Shown piece by piece: positions 15,014 through 63,635 of a stretch of 64,000 nucleotides of DNA; the first letter of the stretch is position 1; every line of letters starts with the position of its first letter. The position numbers were made by a program, and so were the translations under genes. A model generated the notes under the pieces. That model had not been told where the DNA came from. It worked only from the letters and a program-made list of their open reading frames with translations, and did not search any database. The stretch is from positions 1 through 64,000 of IMG/VR virus record IMGVR_UViG_3300045971_000149. One strand, 5' to 3'. Source of the stretch: a virus.

Positions 15014-15063
15014 ACAAACTCCAATTTAGTACGTTGTGGGATATTTATGAGTTAAATATCACG

Positions 15064-18069: not shown

Positions 18070-18078
18070 ACTACTAGT

Positions 18079-18984: not shown

Positions 18985-18997
18985 ATTTATCGATTAA

Positions 18998-50402: not shown

Positions 50403-50485
50403 GTTATGTCCTACTGTTTGTTTGCTATGTGTGTATTATAACAAAGAACGACGAGACTGTCAAGTCCCGCCGCCCTGTAGGGTTA

Positions 50486-51373
50486 TCAGTTAGTCAGTAC
50501 GTACTGCGCAATGGCTTTCCAATTGCCGCCTGCTGCCCGAAGCTTTGTCACTGCTTGCAGTGTGCGCAGGCTAAGCTCTTTCACTTCGCCTTGCACGGAG
50601 CGGATAAGTGCCATCGCGTCGTCTTTATGCTTTTGGCTGTACTGCGGCATGAAAGTTGCACTGCTTGTCATATGCTGCATGCGTTCCACTTTCTGATCGC
50701 TTGTCATCTTCAAGTCAATGCAGTAAGCACGAGTCAACAGTGCGTTGGCTACTTGCTCGCGGCGCATGTTAGAGATGAAGATGATGCGTCCTTGGAATAC
50801 AAAGCTACGCGGCAGGTCGTCGTCTTTCATGTCTGCGTTCCAGCTAATCACTCGCTTGTCGTAGCTGTCCAAAGCGCCCTTCAGCAGGTTCAATGCAGTA
50901 GCATCTTTGAGCACATCGTCGCAGTCATCAAACACTAGCACACTGTCGCGATTCATGTACAGCTCGCGATACAAGCCCTTAGCAGTGCTATAGCCTTTGA
51001 TCATCTTGTATGCTTTAGACGGGGCGTCGCTTTCGAAGCTAGACACATCCTCAAGTCCGTTTGCAGCGAGTGCTTCCTTCACAGTGTGCGTCTTGCCCAA
51101 TCCGCCGGGACCAGTGATCAGTACGCTAGTCGCGTTGCCTTGTGCAATCATGTTAACGAGCTGCGTCACAAACTCGAAGCGCTGATTGATTGGCCATTTA
51201 GTGTCTTCGCCGTCTTGCGGAGCAGTGACATCTTCGCTTGCAGGCACAGTGACCTTGTGTCCCGCCTTAGCCATCATCTTCACAACGCGAGTCTGGTCGT
51301 AGGACTTAACGACTTTCTTTCCCATGTACATGCCAATCCAGTTGCCGTCTGCATAAACAATTTTAGCTTGCAT
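50486..51373 (-). CDS. AAA-type P-loop ATPase (paralogue A)
   Basis: GPGGLGKT, VFDDCD, IFISN; start moved to MQAKIV downstream of the promoter. Confidence 0.85.
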   Translation of the reverse strand: MQAKIVYADGNWIGMYMGKKVVKSYDQTRVVKMMAKAGHKVTVPASEDVTAPQDGEDTKWPINQRFEFVTQLVNMIAQGNATSVLITGPGGLGKTHTVKEALAANGLEDVSSFESDAPSKAYKMIKGYSTAKGLYRELYMNRDSVLVFDDCDDVLKDATALNLLKGALDSYDKRVISWNADMKDDDLPRSFVFQGRIIFISNMRREQVANALLTRAYCIDLKMTSDQKVERMQHMTSSATFMPQYSQKHKDDAMALIRSVQGEVKELSLRTLQAVTKLRAAGGNWKAIAQYVLTN

Positions 51374-51460
51374 TTCGTTTCCTTTTACTGCTTCGTTTAA
51401 CATGTATGTATTATAGTCTCATTGTGCAGAACAGTCAAGTCCCGCCAACTTGTAGGGTTA

Positions 51461-51664
51461 TTAGTAAGAAAGTGCTTTGGCTAGCGTCGCAGCATTCAAT
51501 GCGTTTTGCGCATCATACAGTGTGGCCGTTGCGCGGGCTACTGTGGCGTTAGATGCTTTCTCGCTGTTGTTTGCTACGTGGTACGCTACTAGCGCATCGG
51601 CGTATGCGAACACAAGTGCTTTGACTGTTCGATTGTGCTGCGCTGCGACTTTGACTGTTGCCAT
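51461..51664 (-). CDS. Small Ala-rich early protein
   Basis: Own promoter and AAGGAG RBS. Confidence 0.75.
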   Translation of the reverse strand: MATVKVAAQHNRTVKALVFAYADALVAYHVANNSEKASNATVARATATLYDAQNALNAATLAKALSY

Positions 51665-51744
51665 GCTGTACTCCTTGTTGCGATGTATGTATTATAGTCT
51701 CATTCAACGGAACTGTCAACAACCCTATGATCCATAGGGTTATT

Positions 51745-52085
51745 GTGAATAGGTGCTGTTCGTTTGGACTCTTACCACAGTGTTTCCCGATATGGCTAAC
51801 CGGCGCGGTTGATCACCGCAAAGGACATAGACAGCTTAGTCCTACTGTTTACTTCTCGCCTGATCAGGACGACTAGTTAGTTAAGGCGTTTCGAGCGATG
51901 GAAGATTTTACACTGTCTTGCGACTGAAGTGACTCCGTCTTTCGATGCGCTGTATGGCACCGGCCCCACTACCTTATTGTAACATGCTCGGGGAATACTG
52001 GCCCATTGCCAATCACTAGATCGGGTGAACGTTCAAACCTAAACACATTACAATAAGGGCACTGTAGTTTCCTACAGTGCTGTAC
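51745..52085 (-). ncRNA. Candidate structured non-coding RNA
   Basis: No credible ORF; 9-bp GAAA hairpin, 15-bp long-range stem, GCAA tetraloop stem and further hairpins. Confidence 0.6.
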
Positions 52086-52089
52086 CTAC

Positions 52090-52359
52090 TTACAGTACAA
52101 AGCCCAAACGCTGGCCTTCTTCAGCGACAGCTTGCGCAACATCCAAATCGTCGCAAACCCAATCGCTGTTAAGCAAAGCGTCTACGCAATCTTCTTGTCG
52201 CTCTGCTTGCGCCAACTCAATAAAGCGCACGTCAGTGTGACCGTTACGCTCCAGCACACCCTTACGGCCTTTGCTGTTAGCATAGCGCACAGCAAACACG
52301 CCGTTTTGCTTGGAAACGCCGACGAAAGTAAAAGTGTTTGTGTTAATGTCTTTTGCCAT
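52090..52359 (-). CDS. Small early protein, paralogue of 63112-63549
   Basis: FTFVGVSKQNGVFAVRYAN...VLERNGHTD matches FSHAGVSKLNGEYKVRYAN...VLAKNGHVD. Confidence 0.8.
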   Translation of the reverse strand: MAKDINTNTFTFVGVSKQNGVFAVRYANSKGRKGVLERNGHTDVRFIELAQAERQEDCVDALLNSDWVCDDLDVAQAVAEEGQRLGFVL

Positions 52360-52443
52360 TTTTAACTCCTAGTGTGTTTGTGTATGTATGTATTATAACG
52401 CCGTTTTGCTTTACTGTCAACTACCCTATGCACTGTAGGGTTA

Positions 52444-52653
52444 TTAGTATTTCTGTACGCGGATGATCTGATGCAAGTAAGCCCAGCTGCCGTTCTTGTC
52501 ATCGCCGCTTGCCAACGTGTAGCCAATGCCGGGAATGCCGTTCTTTATGTCTGCATCCACTTCGTCGACAATAGCGCGGACGCCCATGCCGCTGCCGAAG
52601 TTTGTGGCAACCCAAACGATGCTTCCCACCTTTACGTCGCGTAGTGTAATCAT
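52444..52653 (-). CDS. Small early protein
   Basis: MITLRDVKVG...; own promoter and RBS. Confidence 0.75.
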   Translation of the reverse strand: MITLRDVKVGSIVWVATNFGSGMGVRAIVDEVDADIKNGIPGIGYTLASGDDKNGSWAYLHQIIRVQKY

Positions 52654-52812
52654 ATAGTCCTTTGTTTGCATGTATGTATTATACTCTCAAACTGCAGAAC
52701 TGTCAACAACCCTATGCACCGTAGGGGCTTTATTGTGTTAGGCACAATCGCCGTCCATCCCCGCCTTGTTCGAAGTATGTATTGTAACACCTTCGATCAA
52801 GTTTGTCAATCC

Positions 52813-53058
52813 CTATCGTAGATCACCAAACAGGCTGAATCCAGTCTTGGGATCAGGAAGATCTGCGTTGTCGATTGGATGTATGACAGGCTCATCCTCT
52901 TGTTCAGCTTCGTCGGACAGCTTGATCAGGTTGAGCTCCTCCCATGCTCTCCACAGGTCGTAGTCAGGATCGCCAGTGTTGCTTTCCATAGCGGCTATTC
53001 CTTGTTGCAGGAACTGCAGGGCGATCTTAGCCCGGATGAGTTTCTCTTTGTGTTTCAT
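52813..53058 (-). CDS. Small early protein
   Basis: AAGGAAG RBS. Confidence 0.7.
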   Translation of the reverse strand: MKHKEKLIRAKIALQFLQQGIAAMESNTGDPDYDLWRAWEELNLIKLSDEAEQEDEPVIHPIDNADLPDPKTGFSLFGDLR

Positions 53059-53070
53059 GTTATTGCTTCC

Positions 53071-53211
53071 TTAGAATATGATTACTTCGTCGCCGTCGTC
53101 TTTAACTTCGTCGATCGGGTTAGTGCAGTCCCACTCGCCACACCACACAGTTACCTGCTTGTCCTGATCCATACGAGACAACATCTCCATCAATTCGCGT
53201 ACAGTCATCAT
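53071..53211 (-). CDS. Small early protein (46 aa; not in ORF track)
   Basis: MMTVRELMEMLSRMDQDKQV...; AAGGAG RBS after the promoter. Confidence 0.75.
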   Translation of the reverse strand: MMTVRELMEMLSRMDQDKQVTVWCGEWDCTNPIDEVKDDGDEVIIF

Positions 53212-53267
53212 CTACTCCTTTGTTGCTATGTATGTATTATACTCTCTTTTGGACAGAGTGTCAACCG

Positions 53268-53495
53268 CTATCGCACTTCGAATCGACCTTTAGCGTCACG
53301 AGCTGGATTGCGATAGATGTCACGATAGCTGCCAGATGCTAGTTGATAGACTGCGATGTCGCGTTGCTCTGTCTTCCAGAGATTGTATACAAAGTTGCAG
53401 CATTCGCCTAGACTGTTGCTTTCAAACAACACCACAGCGTCATCATCGTGTGCCAGCTTGAACTCGGGATTAAGGTAGAAGCATTGGTATTCCAT
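53268..53495 (-). CDS. Small early protein
   Basis: MEYQCFY...RDAKGRF. Confidence 0.65.
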   Translation of the reverse strand: MEYQCFYLNPEFKLAHDDDAVVLFESNSLGECCNFVYNLWKTEQRDIAVYQLASGSYRDIYRNPARDAKGRFEVR

Positions 53496-53496
53496 C

Positions 53497-53658
53497 TTAG
53501 ATCTTTGCGTCCTTAACCATAGCTTGACAGAAAAAACGGTAGCCATTGTCGCCACCAACAGACATACCACCTTGCAGTTTCCAACCATCTTCCAACATCT
53601 CGTTTACTGTGTCAGTGAGTGCGTCTGCGCTGGATTCTTGAACTGCAAAATATTCCAT
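53497..53658 (-). CDS. DUF1737-like small protein (53 aa; not in ORF track)
   Basis: LTDTVNEMLEDGWKLQGG...FCQAMVK. Confidence 0.7.
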   Translation of the reverse strand: MEYFAVQESSADALTDTVNEMLEDGWKLQGGMSVGGDNGYRFFCQAMVKDAKI

Positions 53659-53709
53659 TGTGTGTCCTTTGTTGCTATGTATGTATTATACTCTCTTTTG
53701 GACAGAGTG

Positions 53710-54252
53710 TCAACCAAAGTCCCGTGCCATCTTGTACTCGCAACGAGCAATCTCTTCCAACTGCTCCTTGATGCTATGCAAGCGATCATACAGGCGTTCC
53801 ATAGCCATATCCTGCTCAGGACCTTCGCCCAATGCACCTTCCTGGTATGCATCCAACTGCTCCTGGATAGCGATCTGCTCTTCGCACAGGTTGCCCACAT
53901 CGCCTACCATCACCTTAGGAACCATAACCTTAGCCACTGCGGCAGCGGCCTTCTCCTGTGCAATCTCTACCAACTGGCCTGCATACTTGTTGATGCGCGG
54001 CACACCTTTCACGTTGGGCTTGCGCCAGTATGCGATCTGCTTGTCGGACAAGCGGTTGAACTTGCTGTAGAAGTTAGCCATTGACGTGCCCATACGTGCA
54101 TCGGCGGGTGTGAAGCCAATGCCGTTCTGGTAGCGGGTCTGTTCGCTTACTTGCTCGTCACGCACTTGGCGTTCGTTGAGCACTACCAAAGCACGGGCAA
54201 TGGCCTTGTTAGAAGTGTTCAGCAGGTCCAGGATTTGTTGCTTGCTTGTCAT
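53710..54252 (-). CDS. Early hypothetical protein
   Basis: 180 aa; own promoter/RBS; stop codon lies in the next -35 box. Confidence 0.8.
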   Translation of the reverse strand: MTSKQQILDLLNTSNKAIARALVVLNERQVRDEQVSEQTRYQNGIGFTPADARMGTSMANFYSKFNRLSDKQIAYWRKPNVKGVPRINKYAGQLVEIAQEKAAAAVAKVMVPKVMVGDVGNLCEEQIAIQEQLDAYQEGALGEGPEQDMAMERLYDRLHSIKEQLEEIARCEYKMARDFG

Positions 54253-54287
54253 ACAGTACTCCTTGTTGCGATGTATGTATTATACAA

Positions 54288-54467
54288 TCAAACAGAAGCC
54301 TTGTCAACCTCTTTCTTCAGTTCGCTGTAGTTCTTCATCACAAAGACGTACTCGTCCTGTGTGAGTTTTGTTGCAGAAGCAGCTCTAGGATCGAGCATGT
54401 TCCACTTGCCGCTGCGTTGCACCTTGACGTAGGCTTTGAAGTCTTTCAGTTGCTTTGCTGTAAACAT
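54288..54467 (-). CDS. Small early protein
   Basis: MFTAKQLKDFKAYVKVQRSGKWNM; own promoter/RBS. Confidence 0.75.
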   Translation of the reverse strand: MFTAKQLKDFKAYVKVQRSGKWNMLDPRAASATKLTQDEYVFVMKNYSELKKEVDKASV

Positions 54468-54527
54468 TGTGTCTCCTTGTTGCGATGTATGTATTATACA
54501 ATCAAACTGCAGACCTGTCAACCGGAA

Positions 54528-54701
54528 TCAGTACGTCTCTTTGTGGATTGTGAACTGATCTGCAGGATACTTTGCTTTGAACTCATCCGTAGCCATGTAC
54601 TCGCGCAAGGCTTTGGCGTCAAAGAACACCTTACTCAGGACCGATTGTAGCTTGCCGATTGGGCACACTGTAAGATAGACTGACTTCGCTTTACCTGCCA
54701 T
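54528..54701 (-). CDS. Small early protein (57 aa; not in ORF track)
   Basis: MAGKAKSVYLTV...IHKETY; AGGAG RBS. Confidence 0.7.
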   Translation of the reverse strand: MAGKAKSVYLTVCPIGKLQSVLSKVFFDAKALREYMATDEFKAKYPADQFTIHKETY

Positions 54702-54811
54702 TAGAGTTCTCCTGTGATCAAATAGAATGCCAAGTCGGCATCAAAGGGTTCCCAAGGGACGATACATTCCAATCCTACCCAATGAATGTACTCGTTGCTG
54801 AATGTAGACAT
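54701..54811 (-). CDS. Small early peptide (36 aa; not in ORF track)
   Basis: MSTFSNEYIHWVG...; RBS; TAATG coupling to the next ORF. Confidence 0.6.
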   Translation of the reverse strand: MSTFSNEYIHWVGLECIVPWEPFDADLAFYLITGEL

Positions 54812-54844
54812 ATCGTTCCTTTGTTTGTGTGCTATTATAACACG

Positions 54845-55216
54845 TTATTGCAGATTGAGCAACTCTTTTTCTTCCTGGCTCAACTTCGCAAGGGCGTTCT
54901 GACGAACCAAATACTTGCGCTCTGCTTCGGCACGTTCTTCTTCTTTCCACTTCACTGCCCAGCTTAGGTCGTCCAAATCAGACTCTGCATCGGTGCTGTA
55001 GAAGAAGTCGACTTCGAAGTAAGTGCGATCGCGTTTGTCCAGATCAAACAGGCTAAACGTCATGTCGTTGCGAGCAGCCATTTCAAAGTTCGCGTGTTGG
55101 GCACGTTGCAGGACTGCCATCAAACGATTTGGGTAGGATGCCTCTTGTTCTTCAAGCATTGCCTGACGCACTACTTCTTCCCGGGCCATACGCTCTGCTT
55201 TAGTTTCTTTTGCCAT
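54845..55216 (-). CDS. Early hypothetical protein
   Basis: C-terminal ALAKLSQEEKELLNL; own promoter. Confidence 0.75.
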   Translation of the reverse strand: MAKETKAERMAREEVVRQAMLEEQEASYPNRLMAVLQRAQHANFEMAARNDMTFSLFDLDKRDRTYFEVDFFYSTDAESDLDDLSWAVKWKEEERAEAERKYLVRQNALAKLSQEEKELLNLQ

Positions 55217-55376
55217 TTCGTTCATCCTTTTTGTCTATGCGTTAATTATAGCAAGGTTTTACCAAAGCGTCAACACCTATTTCAAAGACCCTACAGGGTG
55301 ATGGGATAAATAAAAGTGCCGCTCGCGACACGCCAATGTCCAGCAGCTCTAACAGTTTATAAGGAACTAATCAGCA

Positions 55377-55727
55377 ATGTATTTACACTTCTATGTCTAC
55401 GCCTATCTGCGTATTGACGGCACACCCTACTACAAAGGCAATGGTGATCGAGCTTACGCAAAACACCGCATTCCTGTGCCAAAAGATCGATCGAGGATCG
55501 TGTTCCTTGAGACAAACCTAACTGATATCGGCGCATTGGCAATTGAGCGCAGACTGATTGCTTGGTACGGACGCAAGGACTTAGGCACAGGTATCTTGCG
55601 TAACCTTACAGACGGCGGCGAAGGTTCAAGTGGAGCAACTAGATCACAAGAAACTCGCGATAAAATATCAGCCGCAAAGAAAGGCATACCTGCTCATAAC
55701 AAAGGAAAAACGAGTAGGAAGAGTTAG
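55377..55727 (+). CDS. GIY-YIG/NUMOD3 homing endonuclease-like protein, probably defective
   Basis: [49 protein letters not shown]; the IG of the YIG motif is missing. Confidence 0.8.
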
Positions 55728-55771
55728 TTCCTACTGTTTGTTGCTATGTATGTATTTTACAACCGAAATGT

Positions 55772-55927
55772 CTACTTGTCAAGTGCTGTTAGGTCTTTTT
55801 TCAACCATGCAAGGTTAGTGGAACTCATCAACCGCAGACCATGGCGGAAGGCTATGTAGACTGACTTGGCGCCGCCTACGTGCTTCTCAATTATGAAAGT
55901 CTTGTACTGAAACCTATCTTTGATCAT
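55772..55927 (-). CDS. Small early protein
   Basis: MIKDRFQYKTF...; follows the 55929 ORF. Confidence 0.6.
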   Translation of the reverse strand: MIKDRFQYKTFIIEKHVGGAKSVYIAFRHGLRLMSSTNLAWLKKDLTALDK

Positions 55928-55928
55928 G

Positions 55929-56120
55929 TTAGGCAACCTTTGTGATCTCACCGCGCCAGTAGCACTCGTAGGATCCACCGTCCCAACGTGCCTTGTAGGC
56001 CTGCGCTTCTTCCAGTGTTGTAAAGAACTTGGTGTCACTTGGATCGCAGCGTTGACCCCAACCTGCTTCGTACTCGGTGATCACTACCTTATACAGTGTT
56101 CCCATCTTGACTTCGGACAT
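55929..56120 (-). CDS. Small early protein
   Basis: ITEYEAGWGQR; AAGGAG RBS. Confidence 0.75.
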   Translation of the reverse strand: MSEVKMGTLYKVVITEYEAGWGQRCDPSDTKFFTTLEEAQAYKARWDGGSYECYWRGEITKVA

Positions 56121-56170
56121 TTGCTTCTCCTTACTTGATGTATGTAGTATAACGCCGATCAGAGAAGATG

Positions 56171-56365
56171 TCAACCAACGAACTCCCTAACCCAATGAAA
56201 CCGTGTTGTAGCAGGCATCCACCGATACTGTTGACGCCTGCGTTCCTCTGTCTCAAAGTCGTAGCAGACGCAAACCCAACCGCGGTCTTCGGAGAACGCC
56301 ACCTTGTCAGCGACCTTCACAACCTGTACATACCTGCCGTCCATCATCTTTGCTACTATCATCAT
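56171..56365 (-). CDS. Small early protein
   Basis: AGGAGG RBS; stop codon in the -35 box. Confidence 0.7.
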   Translation of the reverse strand: MMIVAKMMDGRYVQVVKVADKVAFSEDRGWVCVCYDFETEERRRQQYRWMPATTRFHWVREFVG

Positions 56366-56528
56366 ATCGCCTCCTAGTCCATGCATGTATTATAGCAAAG
56401 AATAAAGACCCTGTCAACTGATGGGAATTAAACGGTTTACAGCAATGTTTCAGGTGGTCTGCGCATTAGCGACAACAGCAGCGATTCTACCGCTGTACGT
56501 CTATCTGAGGCCTATATAAATCAATGAC

Positions 56529-56717
56529 TTACGTCGCCTTAACCGTAGCATCTGAGACAACTTTAAGTAGATCAAATAAACGAGCCGTTCCGCAGGAGTA
56601 GGCAACAGTGTGAAGCTCGCCCTTATGCCCACACGTTCCACTCCGAACACAAGGGCAATCACATCGGAAAGGGCACACCTGCCCAATTGGGATCCTGCCC
56701 TGCACAAGGGTGCTCAC
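56529..56717 (-). CDS. Small Cys-rich protein
   Basis: GTGA coupling; CPFRCDCPC..C.H..C. Confidence 0.55.
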   Translation of the reverse strand: MSTLVQGRIPIGQVCPFRCDCPCVRSGTCGHKGELHTVAYSCGTARLFDLLKVVSDATVKAT

Positions 56718-56839
56718 TTTGCCACCTGTGTCACTGCCGCCTTAGTCGCTTCGATTCCTTTATCAGCAACCTTAGCAACCCCAGCGAAGCCCACGGTTGC
56801 TACCGCGATGCCCAAGATGAATCCGATTAGAAATTGCAT
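56714..56839 (-). CDS. Small membrane peptide (41 aa; not in ORF track)
   Basis: MQFLIGFILGIAVATVGFAGVAKVADKG...; AAGGA RBS. Confidence 0.7.
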   Translation of the reverse strand: MQFLIGFILGIAVATVGFAGVAKVADKGIEATKAAVTQVAK

Positions 56840-56851
56840 AGTGTTTCCTTG

Positions 56852-57211
56852 TTAAGCAATTGACTTGAAGTAACCATAAGGGATGCCTTGTTCCCAGCAA
56901 AAGTAGTCCCAGTCGCCGTTGCAACCGCTAGCTTCCATCAACCAACGCAGTGCATCTTCACGTGAACCAGCACCAGTTGCAATCGTAGCGCGAACCAGCA
57001 ACTCCAGCTTCTCGATAGCCGCAACCTGATCCAACTCACGTTGTTCCCACACAACCTTAGCCTGCTCACCCAAACGGGTTAGCATCTCCACCAAGTCTTC
57101 TTCTGTGCAGGAAGCAAAGTCTACCCAACGAGGACGCACGTTGTACACTTCCTTGTAGAAGTCCCAGTACTCTGCTACCAGTTCGTCTTTGCGGGTCATT
57201 ACGTATTCCAT
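56852..57211 (-). CDS. Conserved phage early protein
   Basis: YWDFYKEVYNVRPR...GIPYGYF. Confidence 0.8.
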   Translation of the reverse strand: MEYVMTRKDELVAEYWDFYKEVYNVRPRWVDFASCTEEDLVEMLTRLGEQAKVVWEQRELDQVAAIEKLELLVRATIATGAGSREDALRWLMEASGCNGDWDYFCWEQGIPYGYFKSIA

Positions 57212-57267
57212 TGTGTGTCCTTTGTTGCTATGTATGTATTATACTCTCAATTCGCAGGGCTGTCAAC

Positions 57268-57384
57268 CTATCCCTTAGCGATCTTGATAGCAAGTGCAAT
57301 CAACTGTGCGGTAGTCAACGGAACGAACTTTTGGTCCTGAGCCCGCTTAACGTGATCTGCTTGAACAATAGTAAACTGTGGCAT
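57268..57384 (-). CDS. Small early peptide (38 aa; not in ORF track)
   Basis: MPQFTIVQADHVKRA...; own promoter/RBS. Confidence 0.6.
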   Translation of the reverse strand: MPQFTIVQADHVKRAQDQKFVPLTTAQLIALAIKIAKG

Positions 57385-57439
57385 GTTGTTTCCTTAGTGT
57401 GTTGCGATGTATGTATTATAAGGCCAATTCGGAAAACTG

Positions 57440-57757
57440 TCAAGTAGTCTCTTCCAGTTCTTCCCATCCCATAGAAGCACACAAGTAGTTCACACCGTCC
57501 ACTTCTACAATGTCGCCTACACTAACAGAGCGACCACGTCCGTACAGTTGCTCGCGTTCGCCTTGACGCGACGGGTTGTTTGTCAGGTCAAATGCTTCTT
57601 CAGCAGCGTCAATGCCTTCTGCATCAACTGCAAAGCAAGGGCGGATCTCATAGGATTTGTAGTTGTCCATTGCCACGTTGGCTTGACCACGCTTGCTAGT
57701 GTAGAAAGACATTATCAGTTCTGCAGGGGCTAGCTTGATAGTTACTACTGAAATCAT
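57440..57757 (-). CDS. Early hypothetical protein (YodL-like RSVSVGDIV motif)
   Basis: RSVSVGDIVEVDG...YLCASMGW. Confidence 0.75.
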   Translation of the reverse strand: MISVVTIKLAPAELIMSFYTSKRGQANVAMDNYKSYEIRPCFAVDAEGIDAAEEAFDLTNNPSRQGEREQLYGRGRSVSVGDIVEVDGVNYLCASMGWEELEETT

Positions 57758-57821
57758 TGTGTGCTCCTTGTTGCGATGTATGTATTATAACAAAGAAAGC
57801 AGGGGCTGTCAACCCCGTTGC

Positions 57822-58043
57822 TTACTTGAGACCAAACAGTCTTGCAGCTTCTAACGCAGCAGCAGGCAGCGGCTCGCCCGTGCTTTTTGCAATAGTAAAC
57901 GCGGCTTGCATTGCAGCAAGTTGCGCAGGGCTAACACGCACACCCAAATAGGAGCCAACCTCAACTTTAGCTTGCAAACTGCGCAAACTGTTAAGTTGAC
58001 GCTTGGACAAGTTGGAAACTACTGCGGATTGTACTGGAGTCAT
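57822..58043 (-). CDS. Small early protein
   Basis: Own promoter/RBS. Confidence 0.7.
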   Translation of the reverse strand: MTPVQSAVVSNLSKRQLNSLRSLQAKVEVGSYLGVRVSPAQLAAMQAAFTIAKSTGEPLPAAALEAARLFGLK

Positions 58044-58107
58044 TTTGTGTTCCTTTGTTGCGATGTATGTATTATAGCGCCTTTCAATAACCCTGTCAAC
58101 CGATGGG

Positions 58108-58317
58108 TTATTCCTTCTCTTGCACCCAGAGGCTATCTAGGTCTGCATCTAGGTCTGCCAGCAACCCTGCAATCGCAAAGGCGTACTCATCACCAACATC
58201 TGTACCACCTAACTCTTGGGCAATAATTGCAGCGGCCGACTCCAGGCGCATCTTGGCCTGTGACAGGTTGTAGATTGCCTTACGTTGCTCTGCGGTGAGC
58301 GTTGCGGTGTTAGTCAT
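58108..58317 (-). CDS. Small early protein
   Basis: Second gene of the cassette. Confidence 0.65.
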   Translation of the reverse strand: MTNTATLTAEQRKAIYNLSQAKMRLESAAAIIAQELGGTDVGDEYAFAIAGLLADLDADLDSLWVQEKE

Positions 58318-58320
58318 GCC

Positions 58321-58494
58321 CTATGCGCCTTCAATGCTTTCCAGCTCATGCAGTTGCACCATCAAGTCCAAACGCACGGCGTACAGGGCGTTGATCTCAT
58401 CCTCCATCCCATCCAACAGTTCCAGCAAGTCAATAGATCCTTGCAAGCGCAGGATTGCCATTTCCAAGTGGTGTGTTGCAGTAGTTCCGTCCAT
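58321..58494 (-). CDS. Small early protein (57 aa; not in ORF track)
   Basis: MDGTTATHHLEMAILRL...; AAGGAG RBS. Confidence 0.7.
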   Translation of the reverse strand: MDGTTATHHLEMAILRLQGSIDLLELLDGMEDEINALYAVRLDLMVQLHELESIEGA

Positions 58495-58576
58495 TGTGTA
58501 CTCCTTGTTGCGATGTATGTATTATAACGCTAAAGTGTGCAGCAGTCAACCAAAGACCCTGCACACTATAGGGCTA

Positions 58577-58810
58577 TTAATTTACTGTGTTGCAGCCCAT
58601 CAACTTACCCTTCAAGCTGTACGCACAAGCGTAAATGCGACCGGGCTCCATGCTGTCCTCTGTGCACGTTACAAACGCAAGCACTTCATCCTTGCCCTGA
58701 TACTTTACAACTTTAGCACTTTGTTGCAGGAAGTTGTTGCCGAAGGGCAGTTGCTTTTTAGCAACGGTGAATGCAATGCCGTTTGCGCTAACAGTAATGT
58801 CGTTTTTCAT
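58577..58810 (-). CDS. Small early protein
   Basis: MKNDITVSANG...; own promoter. Confidence 0.7.
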   Translation of the reverse strand: MKNDITVSANGIAFTVAKKQLPFGNNFLQQSAKVVKYQGKDEVLAFVTCTEDSMEPGRIYACAYSLKGKLMGCNTVN

Positions 58811-58889
58811 AAAGCCCTTTGTGTTGTTTAAGTATGTATTATAACGCAAAGAAGGGCTACTGTCAACAATAGCCCTTCACGTTAGTCAA

Positions 58890-59150
58890 CTATGCAAGCA
58901 CACACTTGACAGTAATTCCTGCACCAAAACTACGGTGCCATGCCTCGGGTTCCTGCGTAAGCGTAACATTTTCCGCACCGCAAGCGGCACGCAATGCAGC
59001 AAGTGCCTTGTCGTTTCCGCGGTAATAGCACTTAACGCGGCGTTGGTTGCCCGTGTGTCCTGTTGTTTTGTTTGTGTACATCATATTTCCGTTAACGCCG
59101 TTGGCGCGCATGATGTTACGGACTTGCAGGGTGGTAAGCAGTTTAGCCAT
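58890..59150 (-). CDS. Small early protein
   Basis: Own promoter/RBS. Confidence 0.75.
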   Translation of the reverse strand: MAKLLTTLQVRNIMRANGVNGNMMYTNKTTGHTGNQRRVKCYYRGNDKALAALRAACGAENVTLTQEPEAWHRSFGAGITVKCVLA

Positions 59151-59230
59151 TTCGTTTCCTTTTGCGTTTAAAAATGTATTATAACAGCAAAGCGCAAAGT
59201 TGTCAACAACCCTACGCTTTACTCAACTAC

Positions 59231-59551
59231 TTAAAATTCGTACACGTCGTCCGTTTCCTCAACCCACAGTGTGCCATCCTTGCGTTTGTACACTACAACG
59301 TCCTTGCCGTAAAAGCGTTCGTCTTCGTATGCACTGCCCATAAAGTCGTACACTTCCACACCTTCAACCCGCTTCATGTCGCGCAGTGCAAAGCGTTCCA
59401 CAATCGTGTCGCCGTCATCGCCGTCGCTTGCAAGTGTCCAACCTTCTGTTCCAATGTTGTACTTCACATTGTCTTGCCAACGTGCGTCATCTTGCCACAG
59501 TGTTTGCAACAATTGCAGTTTCACAAACTTCAGCGTTTTAACTTCTTTCAT
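59231..59551 (-). CDS. Small acidic early protein
   Basis: Own promoter/RBS. Confidence 0.75.
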   Translation of the reverse strand: MKEVKTLKFVKLQLLQTLWQDDARWQDNVKYNIGTEGWTLASDGDDGDTIVERFALRDMKRVEGVEVYDFMGSAYEDERFYGKDVVVYKRKDGTLWVEETDDVYEF

Positions 59552-59625
59552 ACAGTTCCTTTGTTGCTATGTGTGTATTATAGCAGCAAAGCGCAAAGCT
59601 GTCAACAACCCTATGCACTGTAGGG

Positions 59626-59904
59626 TTATACCTCTTCCTCTTCTGTCTCCTTGACTTCCCACAACGGCTCAGCGAAGTCGTAGCCTTCTGATATCAGTTC
59701 CTCTGCTGCACGGATGAACTCGGCTTGTAGATCCCATACTGCGGCTGCGATGCGTTCGTCTTTCTTGCGGCGTGCTCGAGCAGTGCCTTCCTGATAGATC
59801 ATTCCGTAGTGTTCTTTGCAGTAGCTCGATTCATTGTGAAGAGCAGTGCAACCACAAGGAACGTTGCCGTTCCCCAGGTATTGGCATTCAGTTACTTTGT
59901 CCAT
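59626..59904 (-). CDS. Small Cys/His zinc-binding protein (GcrA C-terminal-like)
   Basis: CQYLG...CG.....SSYCKEHY..IY. Confidence 0.55.
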   Translation of the reverse strand: MDKVTECQYLGNGNVPCGCTALHNESSYCKEHYGMIYQEGTARARRKKDERIAAAVWDLQAEFIRAAEELISEGYDFAEPLWEVKETEEEEV

Positions 59905-59925
59905 TTTCGTTATCCTTTGTTATTT

Positions 59926-60801
59926 TTAAATTCGACGCATGCAGGTAGTCTTGCACATTGCTTGCCAGCTAGCAGGAAAGCTCTTGCGCAAGTCAGCAAC
60001 CTTCAACACCATACGTAGTGACAGTTCGCGCAGCTTATCCTTGTTGTCATTAATAAACTTAACAACCTCGGCTTCCACTTCGGGCTCGAACTCGTAGTTA
60101 GCAAGCATCTTTGCGCCGGTAACCACTTGGTGTATACGCAGCATCTTTTCACGTTGCGTATCCATTTGCAGATCGATATAGTGACAACGGCTTTCCAATG
60201 CTGCCAAGTGCTCCTTCAAACGTTTAGACTTAACGTGCTCAAACTTAATGTTAGTAATAAAGATCGCAGAACCTTTAAACTCGAAACGATCCGGGATGCC
60301 TTCGCCACGCAGCAAGCGGCTATCAGTGTTCCAGCTAATCCAACGCTTCTCGGAACTGTCCAATGCACCTTTCAAGATGTTCAGGCTAATCTCGTCCAAC
60401 AGCACAGAGTCGCAGTCGTCGAATACAACCACACTACCTTTAGCAGAGTACTCATACAGCTTGCGGTACAGGCCTAGTGCGCTAATAGCACCACCTTTGA
60501 CGATTTCGTACTTTGGCTTCTTATTGGCAAGCTTAGTGAACAGGTCATCCTTTTCCAGGACTTTCTCAATACCAAAGGACTTACCAACACCAGGAGGGCC
60601 ACTAACAATCATTGCACGTACATCGCCGCTCTTCACAGCCTTTGCCATCTCCGTTAGGATCATAAAGCGTTCTTCAAGACGCGCAAGGATCTCTTCGTCG
60701 GTTTCGCGGGCCACCTCTTGCTCACGTGCTTTGATCTTATCGTGATCAAACTCAAGTACTGTTGCGCCTGCGGATGCTTTTTTGGATGCTGCTGTTGCCA
60801 T
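59926..60801 (-). CDS. AAA-type P-loop ATPase (paralogue B)
   Basis: GPPGVGKS, VFDDCD, IFITN, LESRC. Confidence 0.88.
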   Translation of the reverse strand: MATAASKKASAGATVLEFDHDKIKAREQEVARETDEEILARLEERFMILTEMAKAVKSGDVRAMIVSGPPGVGKSFGIEKVLEKDDLFTKLANKKPKYEIVKGGAISALGLYRKLYEYSAKGSVVVFDDCDSVLLDEISLNILKGALDSSEKRWISWNTDSRLLRGEGIPDRFEFKGSAIFITNIKFEHVKSKRLKEHLAALESRCHYIDLQMDTQREKMLRIHQVVTGAKMLANYEFEPEVEAEVVKFINDNKDKLRELSLRMVLKVADLRKSFPASWQAMCKTTCMRRI

Positions 60802-60874
60802 TGTATATTCCTTAGTGTGGTTGTGTATGTGTGTATTATAACAAAGAAACGTTACCTTGTCAACCTCTTTATGC

Positions 60875-61099
60875 TTACAGAGTAAACTGTTTCAGCAATG
60901 TCGTTGCCATCTTGGTATCGTTAACCTTATCCATAAAGGCCAGGATCATCAACTCTACCACAGTCTCGGCGTCCTTGCGATCAGCCTTACCCAGAGTGGC
61001 AATAAAGCGTCGAACCTGATCCTGCCCCTCCATTGCCCATATGATGTCAGCGAATGCCATCTGCTTTGCGGAAAGTCCCGGGATTACAATATCGTTCAT
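60875..61099 (-). CDS. Small early protein
   Basis: AAGGA RBS. Confidence 0.7.
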   Translation of the reverse strand: MNDIVIPGLSAKQMAFADIIWAMEGQDQVRRFIATLGKADRKDAETVVELMILAFMDKVNDTKMATTLLKQFTL

Positions 61100-61108
61100 G
61101 ATAGTTCC

Positions 61109-61243
61109 TTACTTCTTAGGCTTGACTTGCTTTGCTTCTTGTGCAGCGATCTTGCCGCTGTAGGCCTTGCCTGCTTTGTGGATAAGGCCGGTCTTTGTGT
61201 AAACAATTGTACCGCCAGTGGATGATGCTTTGGATGCTTGCAT
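61109..61243 (-). CDS. Small basic peptide (44 aa; not in ORF track)
   Basis: MQASKASSTGGTIVYTKTGLIHKAG...KPKK. Confidence 0.7.
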   Translation of the reverse strand: MQASKASSTGGTIVYTKTGLIHKAGKAYSGKIAAQEAKQVKPKK

Positions 61244-61302
61244 TGTGTATTCCTTTGTTGCTATGTATGTATTATAACGTCTATCTTCTAACCTGTCAAC
61301 CT

Positions 61303-61557
61303 TCAGGGTTCAAACCACTCGGTGCTTTCAACACGAACGAGCTTAGTGCGGGTGAGATGATGGAACTCAGGATCTTCGTCCTGCTCTGCCATCTCCTGGA
61401 AGAAGAAGTGATAATCCTCACCGCTGTCTTCGTCCAATGCACAGAAGGCACCTTCGTCAAAGTCTGTCCATTGCATACGCAGCCACATGCCACCGGGCGT
61501 AACATAGAAGCAAGCACCTTCAGCCGCTTCAAAGATCTGTTTAGCAGTGTATTTCAT
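61303..61557 (-). CDS. Small early protein
   Basis: ATGA-coupled. Confidence 0.7.
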   Translation of the reverse strand: MKYTAKQIFEAAEGACFYVTPGGMWLRMQWTDFDEGAFCALDEDSGEDYHFFFQEMAEQDEDPEFHHLTRTKLVRVESTEWFEP

Positions 61558-61706
61558 TCTGTTTCCTTTTCAACGAATTCGACGTTGTCAATGTCTTCGC
61601 CACGCCCGGGCTCCAAATTAGTCCAGATGGCATCAGCAACCCAATTGCGGGGATGTGATGCTTCATCGTCCAGGATCAAGTCAAAGGATACGCGGTATGT
61701 TTTCAT
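61554..61706 (-). CDS. Small early protein
   Basis: MKTYRVSFDL...HPRNWVAD; GGAG RBS. Confidence 0.7.
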   Translation of the reverse strand: MKTYRVSFDLILDDEASHPRNWVADAIWTNLEPGRGEDIDNVEFVEKETE

Positions 61707-61707
61707 T

Positions 61708-61872
61708 TCAGTAATCTCCGTAGACTGCGTCAAGTTGCTCTTCAAAGTCAGCGATGATCTCTTCCACAATCTCCTGCGGCACAGAAGTAATAGCAGCAAT
61801 CTCGTCAGCAGCAAGACCTTGCTCGTCGTACAGCTCAGTAATCTCGCAGTACAGTTCTTTCATTTTGGACAT
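61708..61872 (-). CDS. Small acidic HTH-like protein
   Basis: GLAADEIAAITSVPQEIVEEII. Confidence 0.65.
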   Translation of the reverse strand: MSKMKELYCEITELYDEQGLAADEIAAITSVPQEIVEEIIADFEEQLDAVYGDY

Positions 61873-61942
61873 TGTGTGTTCCTTTGTTGCTATGTATGTA
61901 TGTATTATAACAGCCTTTTTACGGGCTGTCATCAAAGACCCT

Positions 61943-62191
61943 TTACACTAGTCGGAAATTCTTGCTGAGGAACTTTGACACTTTGCTGTAACCGTGCTCC
62001 TTAATCAGCTCGCTCACCAGTGCGTCTGCTTCGGGCGCATTGCCGCAAGTGGTCATACGATCTGCATCCAGCACCATTTCGATTGCATCCCCATTGGACT
62101 CGCAGAACTCCATAGCATCGGAACCAATGTAGTTCCAAGTTGCGTAAACGGCTTGATTGAGTTGGGAAATAACTGTTGCGTCTAGCTTCAT
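61943..62191 (-). CDS. Small early protein
   Basis: Own promoter/RBS. Confidence 0.75.
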   Translation of the reverse strand: MKLDATVISQLNQAVYATWNYIGSDAMEFCESNGDAIEMVLDADRMTTCGNAPEADALVSELIKEHGYSKVSKFLSKNFRLV

Positions 62192-62246
62192 ACTGTACTC
62201 CTTGTTGCGATGTATGTATTATAGCGCCTATTGAAAAAACAGTCAA

Positions 62247-62273
62247 GAGAAACCCGCCACAAAGGACGGGTTT
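62247..62273 (-). terminator. Intrinsic terminator-like hairpin
   Basis: AAACCCGTC-loop-GGCGGGTTTCTCT on the minus strand. Confidence 0.6.
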
Positions 62274-62290
62274 AAGTGAGCTAGGAAAGC

Positions 62291-62563
62291 TTACAGAGTG
62301 ATGCCAAGTGCACGCGCCTTGAAGCCCAATGCAACGATCTCACGGCTTGGACGTCCGAGTTCGTATTCTGTGACTACAACGCCATTGCCAGCAGTGCGAG
62401 TATTTGCGTAGACTGCGTATCCGAATTGACGGATACGTGATGCTTCTGCGCGTAGATTGCCAACTGAGAAGCGATTACGTGCTTCTGCTTGTGTCAACTT
62501 CTCGCCTGCTGCCAATGCTGCGAATACCTTACCGGTCTTAGTGTCTTGATTAATCTTCTTCAT
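62291..62563 (-). CDS. Winged helix-turn-helix DNA-binding protein
   Basis: AL..GEKLTQAEARNRFSVGNLRAEASRIRQFGYAV...YELG. Confidence 0.75.
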   Translation of the reverse strand: MKKINQDTKTGKVFAALAAGEKLTQAEARNRFSVGNLRAEASRIRQFGYAVYANTRTAGNGVVVTEYELGRPSREIVALGFKARALGITL

Positions 62564-62625
62564 TTGTTATTCCTTGTAATACTGCTTAACAGTTAATACA
62601 AGTATAACAACAACGATTTGGTAAA

Positions 62626-62847
62626 TCAAGCACTTATCTTGCCAAATTCCTTTTTCGTGTGATAGTTAGCCAGCATCTCGTGTACCATACTAACTACATT
62701 GTCGTGATCTTCAGTTAGAAGGAACTGAACAGGGCTTTTACTCCAAGAGCGGTTCTTCAAGAACTCTGAATAGATATCACGATGCTTCTTGTCCGCCGGA
62801 TTGAACATTACAGTCGGACGGCCATAGTTTTGCAAAACGCTTGCCAT
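62626..62847 (-). CDS. Hypothetical protein
   Basis: FNPADKKHR...WSKSPVQF. Confidence 0.7.
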   Translation of the reverse strand: MASVLQNYGRPTVMFNPADKKHRDIYSEFLKNRSWSKSPVQFLLTEDHDNVVSMVHEMLANYHTKKEFGKISA

Positions 62848-62848
62848 A

Positions 62849-63064
62849 TTAGCTAGACTTTATAGAAGATTTAAACAACAAGCCGCACAGGACATTGATT
62901 CCTAATGCAGTCCATACAGAGTTGATTGGATGAATTCCGTCAACAACTCCTACCAAGCAATCATTCCATAGCCACATTGTAGGGTATGCAAACAGCAATG
63001 CCATTACCACAACGATTGCAACAATGCCAACGATTCCGACAATAACAACAAACAACTTATCCAT
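62849..63064 (-). CDS. Small membrane protein
   Basis: Two hydrophobic segments, PTMWLWN. Confidence 0.75.
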   Translation of the reverse strand: MDKLFVVIVGIVGIVAIVVVMALLFAYPTMWLWNDCLVGVVDGIHPINSVWTALGINVLCGLLFKSSIKSS

Positions 63065-63111
63065 ATTCAACTCCAGTTAAAGTACTATACAGCGGGGTCT
63101 TGGGTATTGAA

Positions 63112-63549
63112 TTAAACCAATGCTTCGCCAACGGCCTTAAGTGCTTCGTCGTCGGTAAGCTTCTTCTTAATAACTGCCTTTGCTTCGGCGATAGTCACGA
63201 GCGGGCCAGTAGGGCCTTCAACTGCGGGCAGCTTAGCCTTAACAGCTTTAGTCTTTGCAGGAGCTTCCTTCTTGGGCTTGTCTTTGGATGCAGCTTTAGG
63301 AGCGGGTTCGGAACGCTTGTCAACTTCAGCTTCCAATGCAGCACGGATCTCTGCTTTGCCGTTGTCAAAGTCAATGCCGATCAAATATGCAACTGCATCT
63401 TCCTTGGACATTGGGTGTTTCAATTCCACGATATCAATATCAACGTGGCCGTTCTTTGCAAGCACCTTAACGCGCATTGCGTCATTGGCATAGCGAACTT
63501 TGTATTCGCCGTTCAGTTTAGATACGCCAGCATGTGAAAAAGTAGTCAT
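63112..63549 (-). CDS. Conserved early protein with Lys/Ala-rich tail
   Basis: AGVSKLNGEYKVRYAND; own promoter/RBS. Confidence 0.8.
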   Translation of the reverse strand: MTTFSHAGVSKLNGEYKVRYANDAMRVKVLAKNGHVDIDIVELKHPMSKEDAVAYLIGIDFDNGKAEIRAALEAEVDKRSEPAPKAASKDKPKKEAPAKTKAVKAKLPAVEGPTGPLVTIAEAKAVIKKKLTDDEALKAVGEALV

Positions 63550-63635
63550 TTGTAGTTCCTTCTGTGTGTGTTTTAAACAGCACCTTGCTGTCTATGTGTT
63601 AATTATAACGCCTAATGGAAAATTCGTCAACCAAT

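Follow-up and report, generated by a model that had tools for sequence, protein, structure and literature searches.

The probable main early, hyperplastic region of this uncultured jumbo myovirus is an array of co-oriented promoter-leader units with small genes behind them. We propose, with a probability of roughly 75%, that these units serve both as sigma70 early expression signals and as short-homology exchange sites, by the mechanism described for the promoter-early stem-loop (PeSL) elements (Arbiol et al. 2010, PMC2839356; Comeau et al. 2014, PMC4122927). The window analysed is a stretch of 64,000 nucleotides from the record IMGVR_UViG_3300045971_000149, which is 158 kb long with a CheckV completeness of 44%; relatives with complete genomes measure 322–383 kb, and the nearest cultured relatives, Atu_ph07, PA5oct and the 121Q group, show a tail-sheath identity of about 37–42%. 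The preliminary description of this DNA had ended the array at 63630, but it continues past the window edge to contig position 68140, so that it comprises 36 units over 17.7 kb; a divergent plus-strand promoter, at 68179, marks its far end.

The minus strand carries, from 50435 to 63630, 27 sites that agree with TTGACA-N17-TATAAT at 11 or all 12 positions, all co-oriented, all with the 17-bp spacer that had been claimed throughout, and 18 of them perfect. In 200 shuffles of the stretch the mean was 0.045 such sites and the maximum 1, and the plus strand of the same interval has no site of this quality; the promoter array is thus real, and the earlier count of 29 corresponds to these 27 together with two weaker sites (9 of 12) at 63004 and 62629. 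Within a unit the promoter is followed by the leader ACATACAT(C/A)GCAACAA(A)GGA and then by ATG, the distance from the -10 to the ATG being 22–36 nt (median 26) with the exception of a 52-nt leader at 63630. To say that most units share this leader was slightly generous, as 12 of the 27 window units (17 of 36 in the whole array) have it exactly and 15 of 27 come within three substitutions of the quoted form, although ACA directly follows the -10 in nearly all. The leader is short, unstructured and A/C-rich, with a strong Shine-Dalgarno (SD) sequence; sequence conservation within units spans about -37 to about +22 after the -10. The exact 26-nt core formed by the -10 and leader is found in 72 stretches of other viral contigs. 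The array within the window and its units are as follows.

50400–63630, minus strand: portion of the early cassette array inside the window; about 42 small genes behind 27 promoter-leader units
63547–63630, minus strand: unit TTGACG/TATAAT (11/12), atypical 52-nt leader with a small hairpin; drives g16–g19
62189–62246, minus strand: unit (11/12), exact leader, terminator-like hairpin AAACCCGTC...GGCGGGTTT just upstream; drives g20
61870–61932, minus strand: unit ATGACA (11/12), extra ACAT in the leader; drives g21–g23
61241–61299, minus strand: perfect unit; drives g24 (44 aa) and g25
60799–60863, minus strand: perfect unit; drives g26 (AAA ATPase) and g27
59549–59605, minus strand: perfect unit preceded by hairpin AACCCTAcagtgcaTAGGGTT; spacer matches that of unit 59148–59206 at 15 of 17 positions
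59148–59206, minus strand: perfect unit, -35 enclosed by a hairpin
58808–58866, minus strand: perfect unit, 12-bp hairpin with TTGACA in the loop, then a T-rich spacer; terminator-like in appearance
58492–58549, minus strand: unit TTGACT (11/12), exact leader, CCC-N11-GGG hairpin upstream
58041–58099, minus strand: perfect unit, -35 enclosed by AATAACCC...GGGTTATT
57755–57812, minus strand: perfect unit, exact leader, hairpin CGGGG-TTGACA-GCCCC around the -35
57382–57443, minus strand: perfect unit; the TGA in TTGACA is the stop codon of upstream g34
57209–57266, minus strand: perfect unit, exact leader; drives g36–g38
56363–56417, minus strand: perfect unit, divergent leader ACATGCATGGACTAGGAGG
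56118–56174, minus strand: unit TATACT (11/12); the TGA in the -35 is the stop codon of g39
55705–55782, minus strand: unit TAAAAT (11/12), leader passing directly into hairpin AGTAGGAAC..TTCCTACT and a T-run
55214–55273, minus strand: unit TTGACG (11/12), leader variant TAACGCATAGACAAAAAGGA; drives g43–g45
54465–54521, minus strand: perfect unit with exact leader; 92% identity to unit 54250–54307 across 51 nt
54250–54307, minus strand: perfect unit, exact leader; drives g47 (180 aa)
53656–53713, minus strand: perfect unit, shares 51 nt at 100% identity with the unit at 53264; g47 stops at the TGA in this -35
53209–53264, minus strand: perfect unit, twin of the unit at 53713
52756–52809, minus strand: unit TACAAT (11/12), then only a 6-codon ORF and a hairpin; next unit at 103 bp
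52651–52706, minus strand: perfect unit preceded by hairpin CCCCTAcggtgcaTAGGG
52357–52420, minus strand: perfect unit, leader class ACACACTAGGAG; drives g53
51662–51719, minus strand: perfect unit, exact leader, 11-bp hairpin upstream
51371–51438, minus strand: unit TTGACT (11/12); drives g55
50400–50463, minus strand: perfect unit, the last in the array, 14-bp hairpin around the -35; drives the SprT-like gene 49590–50402

The units, 45–86 bp long, are the only DNA repeats inside the array. Unit 58041–58099 shares 94.7% identity with the unit at contig position 64935 over 75 nt, and the spacer and leader of unit 52357–52420 are 91% identical over 58 nt to those at contig position 66556. Spacers of adjacent units in this genome are more alike than those of non-adjacent ones (p=0.008), and of the nine closest spacer matches, five are between immediate neighbours; the units at 53713 and 53264, which flank the cassette g48–g49, are identical at 51 of 51 positions.

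The whole array holds about 56 genes; the median product is 75 aa long, and 41 genes encode fewer than 100 aa. One to four ORFs follow each promoter, where one to three had been described, and the units at 52809 and 55782 are without a normal gene: the latter has no SD-ATG downstream, and the former looks like an empty or degraded cassette. The cassette genes are mostly mutually unrelated ORFans; 43 of 45 small proteins of the array have no Pfam match, and the only paralogue pairs within it are g26/g55 and g16/g53. The clade's conserved anchor gene is g26 (59926–60801), whose product is a 291-aa AAA ATPase; g55 encodes its 295-aa paralogue. As to what the cassette genes do, we can only infer that they might act in host takeover or anti-defence. 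Elsewhere in the window are three genes of T4-type recombination.

25784–26239, minus strand: UvsY-like recombination mediator (phrog_231, E 1.3e-15; no match to the Pfam UvsY model)
26473–27528, minus strand: UvsX-like recombinase (phrog_97, E 4.8e-69; Pfam RecA, E 2.4e-16)
28204–29208, minus strand: gp32-like single-strand DNA-binding protein (phrog_1192, E 9.7e-66)

At least 577 relatives of the array ATPase were found; of 80 loci that were retrieved, nearly all show a dense co-oriented array upstream of the ATPase gene. After dereplication, 85 arrays comprise 1745 genes in 560 families, of which 389 are singletons. About half of the ORFs in our array are conserved at the protein level in relatives, while 27 of the 56 have no homologue among the 80. 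The preliminary description had held that identical gene order among relatives, or breakpoints unrelated to the repeats, would speak against cassette exchange; the order of conserved genes differs among related contigs, the g24 cassette sits in differing contexts, and 13 crossovers between units are in register, so that the idea of exchange came through this comparison. Adjacency of genes is conserved less across a promoter (0.23) than where no promoter intervenes (0.35; p=0.008).

The crossovers come from clade members whose anchor protein is 70–77% identical, and from close pairs among these. Inside the arrays, 43% of 328 alignment breakpoints fall within units, which make up 11% of the bases. 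In close pairs, 13 of 27 clean indels are flanked by two units in one genome, in whose place the other genome has a single seamless hybrid unit with the switch point inside the common -10/leader core (about 13–41 nt in six aligned pairs); the other 14 do not have a unit on both sides and mostly show an overlap of at most 17 nt at the joint. Both arrangements of one pair (L092/L083) recur at 99% identity or more in contigs of several samples, which argues against an assembly artefact. Between a unit's upstream half and the gene before it there is only a weak association, and between leader and downstream gene none.

That breakpoints lie in units, as had been suggested, holds against random positions but not against gene boundaries: with random whole-gene blocks of similar size as the null, 9.85 unit-flanked indels are expected against the 13 seen (p about 0.09, not significant), which leaves the units unsupported as preferred anchors. 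As the units occupy most of the intergenic space, comparative data do not separate recombination that prefers units from the survival of intergenic breaks only. This stricter null thus leaves room for an explanation in which the units are kept simply as an optimal host promoter and leader, and turnover proceeds by illegitimate or microhomology events at any gene boundary. The 14 indels that are not unit-to-unit fit such a scheme, functional constraint alone could suffice to keep the exact leader across phages whose proteins are about 70–77% identical, and the SPO1 host takeover module (PMC6873191) combines dense strong promoters and small early genes with no claim of shuffling. We nevertheless consider it rather unlikely that expression is the whole function, since the 13 hybrid units, in register and switching in the common core, are what homologous alignment of units and not random joining would produce; the unusual similarity of neighbouring units in this genome and the more frequent loss of adjacency across promoters also speak against it.

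Hairpins upstream of or enclosing the -35 are present at roughly one third of units and could attenuate read-through, although folding energy at units is not below that of control windows (p=0.35), with 6 of 36 units under the control 5th percentile. The upstream gene ends inside the unit or at most 10 nt away in 19 of 35 cases, leaving no room for a terminator, so many cassettes are uninsulated; to call them self-contained was an overstatement. A dyad CCC-N11-GGG, often within AACCC...GGGTT, occurs in 13 of the 36 units and in 125 of 921 distinct units of relatives; CCC-Nx-GGG spacing peaks sharply at N=11 (and 12), GGG-Nx-CCC has no peak, and the offsets of the dyad from the -35 take few discrete values. 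Such regularity, together with the speculation of the PeSL authors on a protein binding their G/C stem, might indicate a phage protein that recognises the dyad and either shuts off the early promoters or catalyses exchange. We find this very improbable, as most dyads are stems of ordinary hairpins in one repeated sequence family, whose spread by copying from a common ancestor accounts for much of the fixed spacing, the dyad is absent from two thirds of the units, the crossovers map to the -10/leader core instead, and no recombinase or repressor candidate was identified. Least credible to us is that the consensus promoters chiefly titrate host sigma70 holoenzyme, with the ORFs secondary. The number and perfection of the promoters are what suggests it, but nearly every unit lies at a fixed distance from a strong SD and ATG, and this coupling, with the protein-level conservation of about half of the ORFs, speaks for selection on expression; moreover, 8–26 perfect units per whole genome suffice in complete relatives.

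If the units serve both expression and exchange, as we favour, each of the 36 would act as a near-perfect host sigma70 promoter followed by a leader with a strong SD, so that about 56 mostly orphan small proteins would be made at once by host RNA polymerase and ribosomes right after infection. Being the sole repeated sequence along the array, the units would also offer short-homology substrates for T4-type recombination by UvsX, UvsY and gp32, with the UvsX-like protein the putative catalyst of unit-to-unit exchange. A crossover in the TATAAT-ACA(T/C)ACAT core, perhaps by way of a circular intermediate, would remove, insert or relocate entire promoter-gene cassettes, each time with a single intact hybrid unit left behind.

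The resemblance of the array to integrons is functional only. Both have co-oriented, small, unrelated and exchangeable genes parted by a repeated recombination sequence, and a very large accessory pool (here 560 families in 85 arrays), but our array has no integrase, no attI/attC and no single common promoter; each cassette has its own promoter, and exchange apparently proceeds by general short-homology recombination. The SPO1 host takeover module (Stewart et al. 1998 via PMC6873191) is likewise a compact block, 26 small early genes within about 12.4 kb, with strong expression signals, its operons having promoters and ribosome-binding sites typical of high expression and many of its products being toxic to the host. 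It has far fewer promoters per gene and no reported cassette-exchange role for its regulatory sequences, and it lies in the terminal redundancy of a phage of another family with a Gram-positive host, whereas the arrays here are internal in the genomes of complete relatives.

The closest match is the PeSL, known in RB49/phi1, T4/PST and KVP40/nt-1 and defined as a sigma70-consensus -35/N17/-10, SD and ATG in front of ORFans within hyperplastic regions; its stem-loops lie upstream of, over or between the promoter boxes, and mini-circle crossovers between the -10 and ATG have been published (PMC2839356, PMC4122927). The preliminary description was apt in naming this precedent, as the published anatomy fits unit for unit: TTGACA-N17-TATAAT with SD and ATG in a conserved unit of about 60–100 bp, units clustered in a hyperplastic early region before small ORFans, stem-loops at variable positions around the promoter, a unit at either end of indels between relatives, the crossover falling between -10 and ATG, and T4-type UvsX, UvsY and gp32 in the phage. 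Our phage differs in belonging to an uncultured jumbo clade that is not T4-like (Straboviridae), and its array is larger and somewhat denser, with 36 units along a single 17.7-kb stretch, where RB49 at its densest has 8 in about 5 kb; the leader after the -10 is highly conserved (26 nt with the -10 identical in the 72 other stretches), stem-loops occur at about a third of units with overall folding no stronger than background, and an AT-rich upstream tract was not noted. The idea of integron-like shuffling with no integrase was already put forward in the published PeSL hypothesis and is not new here; what the array adds is a large new case of this known design, in a clade distant from the T4-like phages.

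Between 48000 and 64000, a consensus scan returns 27 minus-strand sites with 11–12 of 12 matches to TTGACA/TATAAT, 18 of them perfect and all with a 17-bp spacer, and a second, independent scan finds the same 27 sites between 50463 and 63630. On the plus strand of 50463–63630 the same scan finds no such promoter site, and 200 shuffles of 50421–63630 give a mean of 0.045 sites (maximum 1). The preliminary description had counted 29 promoters; this total adds to the 27 two weaker sites, at 63004 and 62629, which have only 9 of 12 matches, although the uniform 17-bp spacer that it reported is confirmed at every one of the 27. We will refer to each TTGACA-N17-TATAAT promoter, together with its leader, SD and ATG, as a unit, named by its minus-strand start position. 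The whole array extends to contig position 68140, where a divergent plus-strand promoter at 68179 forms the boundary; its 36 units occupy 17.7 kb and are spaced at a median of 449 bp. Further along the contig and beyond the window, a sparser second set of consensus promoters with a 17-bp spacer lies on the plus strand at 147500–157000; the leaders there, (T/A)A(A/T)TACAT in type, resemble those of the array, and the set points to a further early region encoded on the other strand.

Alignment of the units on the -35 shows a conserved stretch that begins 2 bases before TTGACA and continues through the -10 and about 22 nt beyond, giving the consensus TATAAT-ACATACAT(C/A)GCAACAA(A)GGA(G). The leader is exact in 17 of the 36 units and within three substitutions in 21; in the window, the common leader described previously is exact in 12 of 27 units. 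The -10 is 22–36 nt from the ATG (median 26), the sole exception being 52 nt at unit 63630, and 34 of the 36 units have, at the 3' end, an SD and then the start codon ATG of the downstream gene. The two units without a normal gene are 55782, which has no SD-ATG, and 52809, which has a 6-codon ORF only. The array holds about 56 minus-strand genes of 36–295 aa (median 75 aa), and these are indeed small ORFs, although they number 1–4 per promoter rather than the 1–3 initially proposed. Self-comparison of the array yields only repeats of 45–86 bp, which are the units themselves, and at the protein level the only paralogues are g26/g55 (the AAA ATPases, in our numbering of the array genes) and g16/g53.

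Stretches of the array with closely spaced units, a leader hairpin or no ORF.
52706-52809, minus strand: two units 103 bp apart, with a 6-codon ORF (ATGGACGGCGATTGTGCCTAA) and a CCC-N11-GGG hairpin between them
55705-55782, minus strand: leader of unit 55782 passing straight into a hairpin, AGTAGGAAC-TAACTC-TTCCTACT, followed by CGTTTTT
51722-52090: 368 nt without an ORF of at least 30 aa on the transcribed strand, with a terminator-like hairpin at 52059-52080

The first of these stretches has the look of a cassette that is empty or has decayed, much as the 'half PeSLs' that have been reported close to indels in T4-like phages (PeSLs being the promoter-early stem-loop cassettes published for that group). 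The second may give rise to a short transcript that is non-coding, or may act as an attenuator; the ORF that follows unit 55782 (55454–55687) has no SD. There is no Rfam or tRNA match in the third, and scans of the entire array gave no tRNA and, from Rfam, only a sub-threshold snoRNA match that we take as chance.

The junctions between cassettes are of two kinds. At 19 of 35 the upstream gene stops inside the unit or at most 10 nt from it, and in five cases its stop codon is the TGA within the -35 hexamer TTGACA, so that gene end and promoter overlap with no spacer.

Stop codons inside the -35 hexamer (TGA in TTGACA), minus-strand array.
64506-64509
64216-64219
57440-57443
56171-56174
53710-53713

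A dozen other junctions have a spacer of 11–45 nt before the -35 (about 21–28 nt in nine of them), and such spacers often hold a hairpin of the type AACCCTA-N7-TAGGGTT. Clear hairpins are present at about 12–14 units, situated either upstream (the CCCTA..TAGGG type) or around the -35; in units 50463, 58866, 57812 and 59206 the -35 lies in the loop and a T-rich spacer follows, and three of the -35-enclosing hairpins have a terminator-like score. As a general property of the units, stem-loops are not borne out by the comparison of folding energies, which over all units are not below those of control windows (p=0.35), with 6 of 36 units under the control 5th percentile. The cassettes had been called self-contained, and this is true of some but not of all, because the overall folding energy is no lower than in controls and the tight junctions leave so little after the upstream stop.

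The units are not confined to this genome. The exact 26-nt string of -10 plus leader is present in 72 stretches of other viral contigs, the 291-aa array ATPase (g26, the anchor gene of the clade) has at least 577 relatives at about 70–77% identity, and a dense array of co-oriented consensus promoters lies upstream of that ATPase in nearly all of 80 loci fetched. Gene content is highly variable: 85 dereplicated arrays hold 1745 genes in 560 families, with 389 singletons, and 27 of the 56 array genes here are without a homologue in the 80 loci, g28–g54 (about 51.4–59.6 kb) being almost wholly private to this genome. Two paralogous AAA ATPases (50486–51373 and 59926–60801, minus strand, 33% identity), both matching phrog_1250, a family of unknown function, flank this genome-specific part; in most relatives the array stops at the first ATPase. 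Conserved genes differ in order between relatives, rather than keeping the identical order that had been named as contrary to a role for the units in gene shuffling. Some blocks are kept together (g14-g16-g18-g19 and g26-g27), and the mobile genes, g02/g03, g07/g08, g11, g13, g17, g24 and g25, usually each have their own promoter. Adjacency is kept less often across promoter-bearing than across promoter-free junctions (0.23 vs 0.35, p=0.008).

The gene after the last unit is SprT-like, and among 45 other small proteins two have Pfam matches, one to a winged helix and one to a DUF, and ten match PHROGs of unknown function. It is therefore from position and size alone that we infer a host-takeover or anti-defence role for the array genes.

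To locate breakpoints we used chained alignments of 26 pairs of clade members at 85–97% identity, taking each unit to span -12 to +65. Of 328 distinct breakpoints in the arrays, 43% fall within units, which make up 11% of array bases. In 13 of 27 clean indels, one genome has units flanking the segment on either side where its partner has just one unit, and in five of six such events that we aligned the single unit corresponds to the left copy up to the TATAAT-ACA(C/T)ACAT core and to the right copy from there onward, the expected product of homologous exchange between two units. This crossover site is where the published crossovers of PeSL mini-circles map. In the sixth event, between the related loci L092 and L083 (about 86% identical), the switch could not be located because of divergence in the left flank. 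The common cores of the six pairs are short (about 13–41 nt), as might be the case if the hybrid units were products of chimeric assembly, but this origin is unlikely, as the L092 and L083 arrangements are each seen again in contigs of several samples, with identities of at least 99%. At the level of the aligned sequences, exchange at units is thus demonstrated in clade members, and it is to them that the crossover evidence belongs, because near relatives of this genome were not found: megablast and blastn with the array gave no match among the 50,697 phage records searched. The other 14 clean indels have no unit on both sides, and the overlap at the joint is mostly 17 nt or less. The suggestion that the units serve as homology anchors is therefore borne out by 13 in-register exchanges, but a preference for units over gene boundaries is not supported by a significant excess, with 13 unit-flanked indels against 9.85 expected for random whole-gene blocks of matching size (p about 0.09); since units fill most of the intergenic space, any whole-gene indel is likely to touch them.

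In this genome, the spacers of neighbouring units are more alike than those of random pairs (p=0.008). A trend for the spacer to go with the upstream gene is in the expected direction but small, and there is no trend for the leader to travel with the downstream gene. Several pairs with similar spacers flank one cassette, as would be expected following a recent integration or of a substrate for excision.

Unit pairs with similar spacers flanking a single cassette.
53713/53264: 51/51 identical
64509/64219
59605/59206
54521/54307

Two further explanations of the units ascribe to them something other than expression. Promoter number by itself would fit the idea that the array acts as a sink for host RNA polymerase, but nearly every unit is tightly coupled to an SD-ATG and about half of the ORFs are conserved as proteins, and for these reasons we argue that expression is the probable selected function of the units. 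The other explanation concerns a dyad, CCC-N11-GGG, found in 13 of the 36 units here (50466-61955 and on the contig to 68140, minus-strand array); in relatives, 125 out of 921 distinct units carry it. Its spacing peaks sharply at N=11–12, a peak that is missing for the reverse arrangement, and its offsets from the -35 are few and discrete (-24, -8/-9, -33/-34 and -20), so that a dedicated factor that binds the dyad might be envisaged. We give this a low probability, as the majority of the dyads form the stems of a single family of repeated hairpins and the crossovers lie elsewhere. A bolder proposal is that the unit is not just an incidental substrate but the common currency of a clade-wide exchange of cassettes among co-infecting jumbo phages, in which a dedicated phage factor would recognise the dyad or the invariant leader and thereby direct recombination or shut the array down. 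We regard this as improbable, at roughly one chance in eight; were it true, the exchange network, which would span 577 or more contigs and, in the arrays sampled, over 560 gene families, would be a genuine integrase-free analogue of an integron.

The record from which the window derives, as its first 64 kb, is 157,925 bp (CheckV completeness 44%), and complete relatives in IMG/VR are 322–383 kb. The window also encodes a large terminase, a DnaB-like helicase, a primase, a 2061-aa fibre protein and an 1118-aa tail sheath, for which the best matches in culture, at 37–42% identity, come from jumbo phages: Atu_ph07, the PA5oct group and the 121Q group. The phage is a distant member of the wider T4-related world and not T4-like proper. 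Its recombination genes are the following.

Recombination genes of T4 type in the window.
25784-26239: UvsY-like mediator (PHROGs match)
26473-27528: UvsX-like recombinase
28204-29208: gp32-like SSB

The Pfam UvsY and RegB models have no match on this 44%-complete contig and equally none in 14 of 14 control genomes, so that absence of either is not established by them. An ORF between the UvsX-like and gp32-like genes (27521–28207, minus strand) has weak matches to intron-like and homing endonuclease PHROGs, covering only about 28 C-terminal residues, and is a candidate for a mobile endonuclease within the recombination module. In several relatives (loci L083, L097 and L113) a DnaB-helicase/primase module is situated 3–8 kb downstream of the array ATPase; here it lies at 15000–20000, at a distance of about 40 kb in which structural and recombination genes are found, and a large rearrangement therefore separates the genomes.

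The preliminary observation is thus confirmed and extended, and its interpretation is supported in part. Taken together, these features indicate that a new phage lineage carries, in this region, a large array of putatively early cassettes of the PeSL type. The defining description of PeSLs, from RB49/phi1, gives units about 100 bp long that combine an AT-rich tract containing the upstream stop codon, a stem-loop that can take five positions with respect to the boxes, -35/N17/-10 boxes of sigma70 consensus, an SD and an ATG. Each genome has 51–52 of them, at densities of up to 8 in about 5 kb, and most precede ORFans in hyperplastic regions; mini-circles arose by crossing-over either in the stem-loop or from the -10 to the ATG (PMC2839356). 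They were later extended to T4/PST and KVP40/nt-1 (PMC4122927). The preliminary description was right to name them as precedent: the sigma70-consensus boxes with a 17-bp spacer (27 units in the window, 36 on the contig), the SD-ATG (34 of 36), a hyperplastic region of mostly ORFans (27 of 56 genes without a match; 560 families in 85 arrays) and, in clade members, unit-bounded indels that leave one hybrid unit (13 of 27) are all found. As the PeSL literature already describes this design, the reading amounts to the published hypothesis in a new lineage, and the array reveals no new principle. What it does provide is an extension of the idea that regulatory cassettes double as recombination joints, from cultured T4-like phages to an uncultured jumbo clade, and an unusually clean case, thanks to the great length of the array, a unit that recurs unchanged in many genomes, and metagenomic relatives in which crossovers are legible at the nucleotide level. 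The presumably early ORFans that it marks, about 56 in this genome and hundreds of families across the clade, become candidates for host takeover or counter-defence, and the unit, a compact consensus promoter plus leader, is a candidate expression part.

A second precedent is SPO1's module for host takeover, with dense, strong early signals before small genes (PMC6873191). As for integrons, these have a tyrosine-recombinase integrase with attI/attC; in the array, no repeats came to light other than the promoter units, and there is no recombinase-family match among the array proteins scanned. A full-text literature search gave no description of PeSLs beyond T4-like phages, and the known carriers belong to the Straboviridae, unlike the carrier here, whose sheath is about 42% identical to those of Atu_ph07 and PA5oct. 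It nonetheless resembles the T4-like carriers in having T4-type UvsX, UvsY and gp32 together with a DnaB-like helicase, and carriage by the Straboviridae is a matter of where PeSLs were found rather than of how they work.
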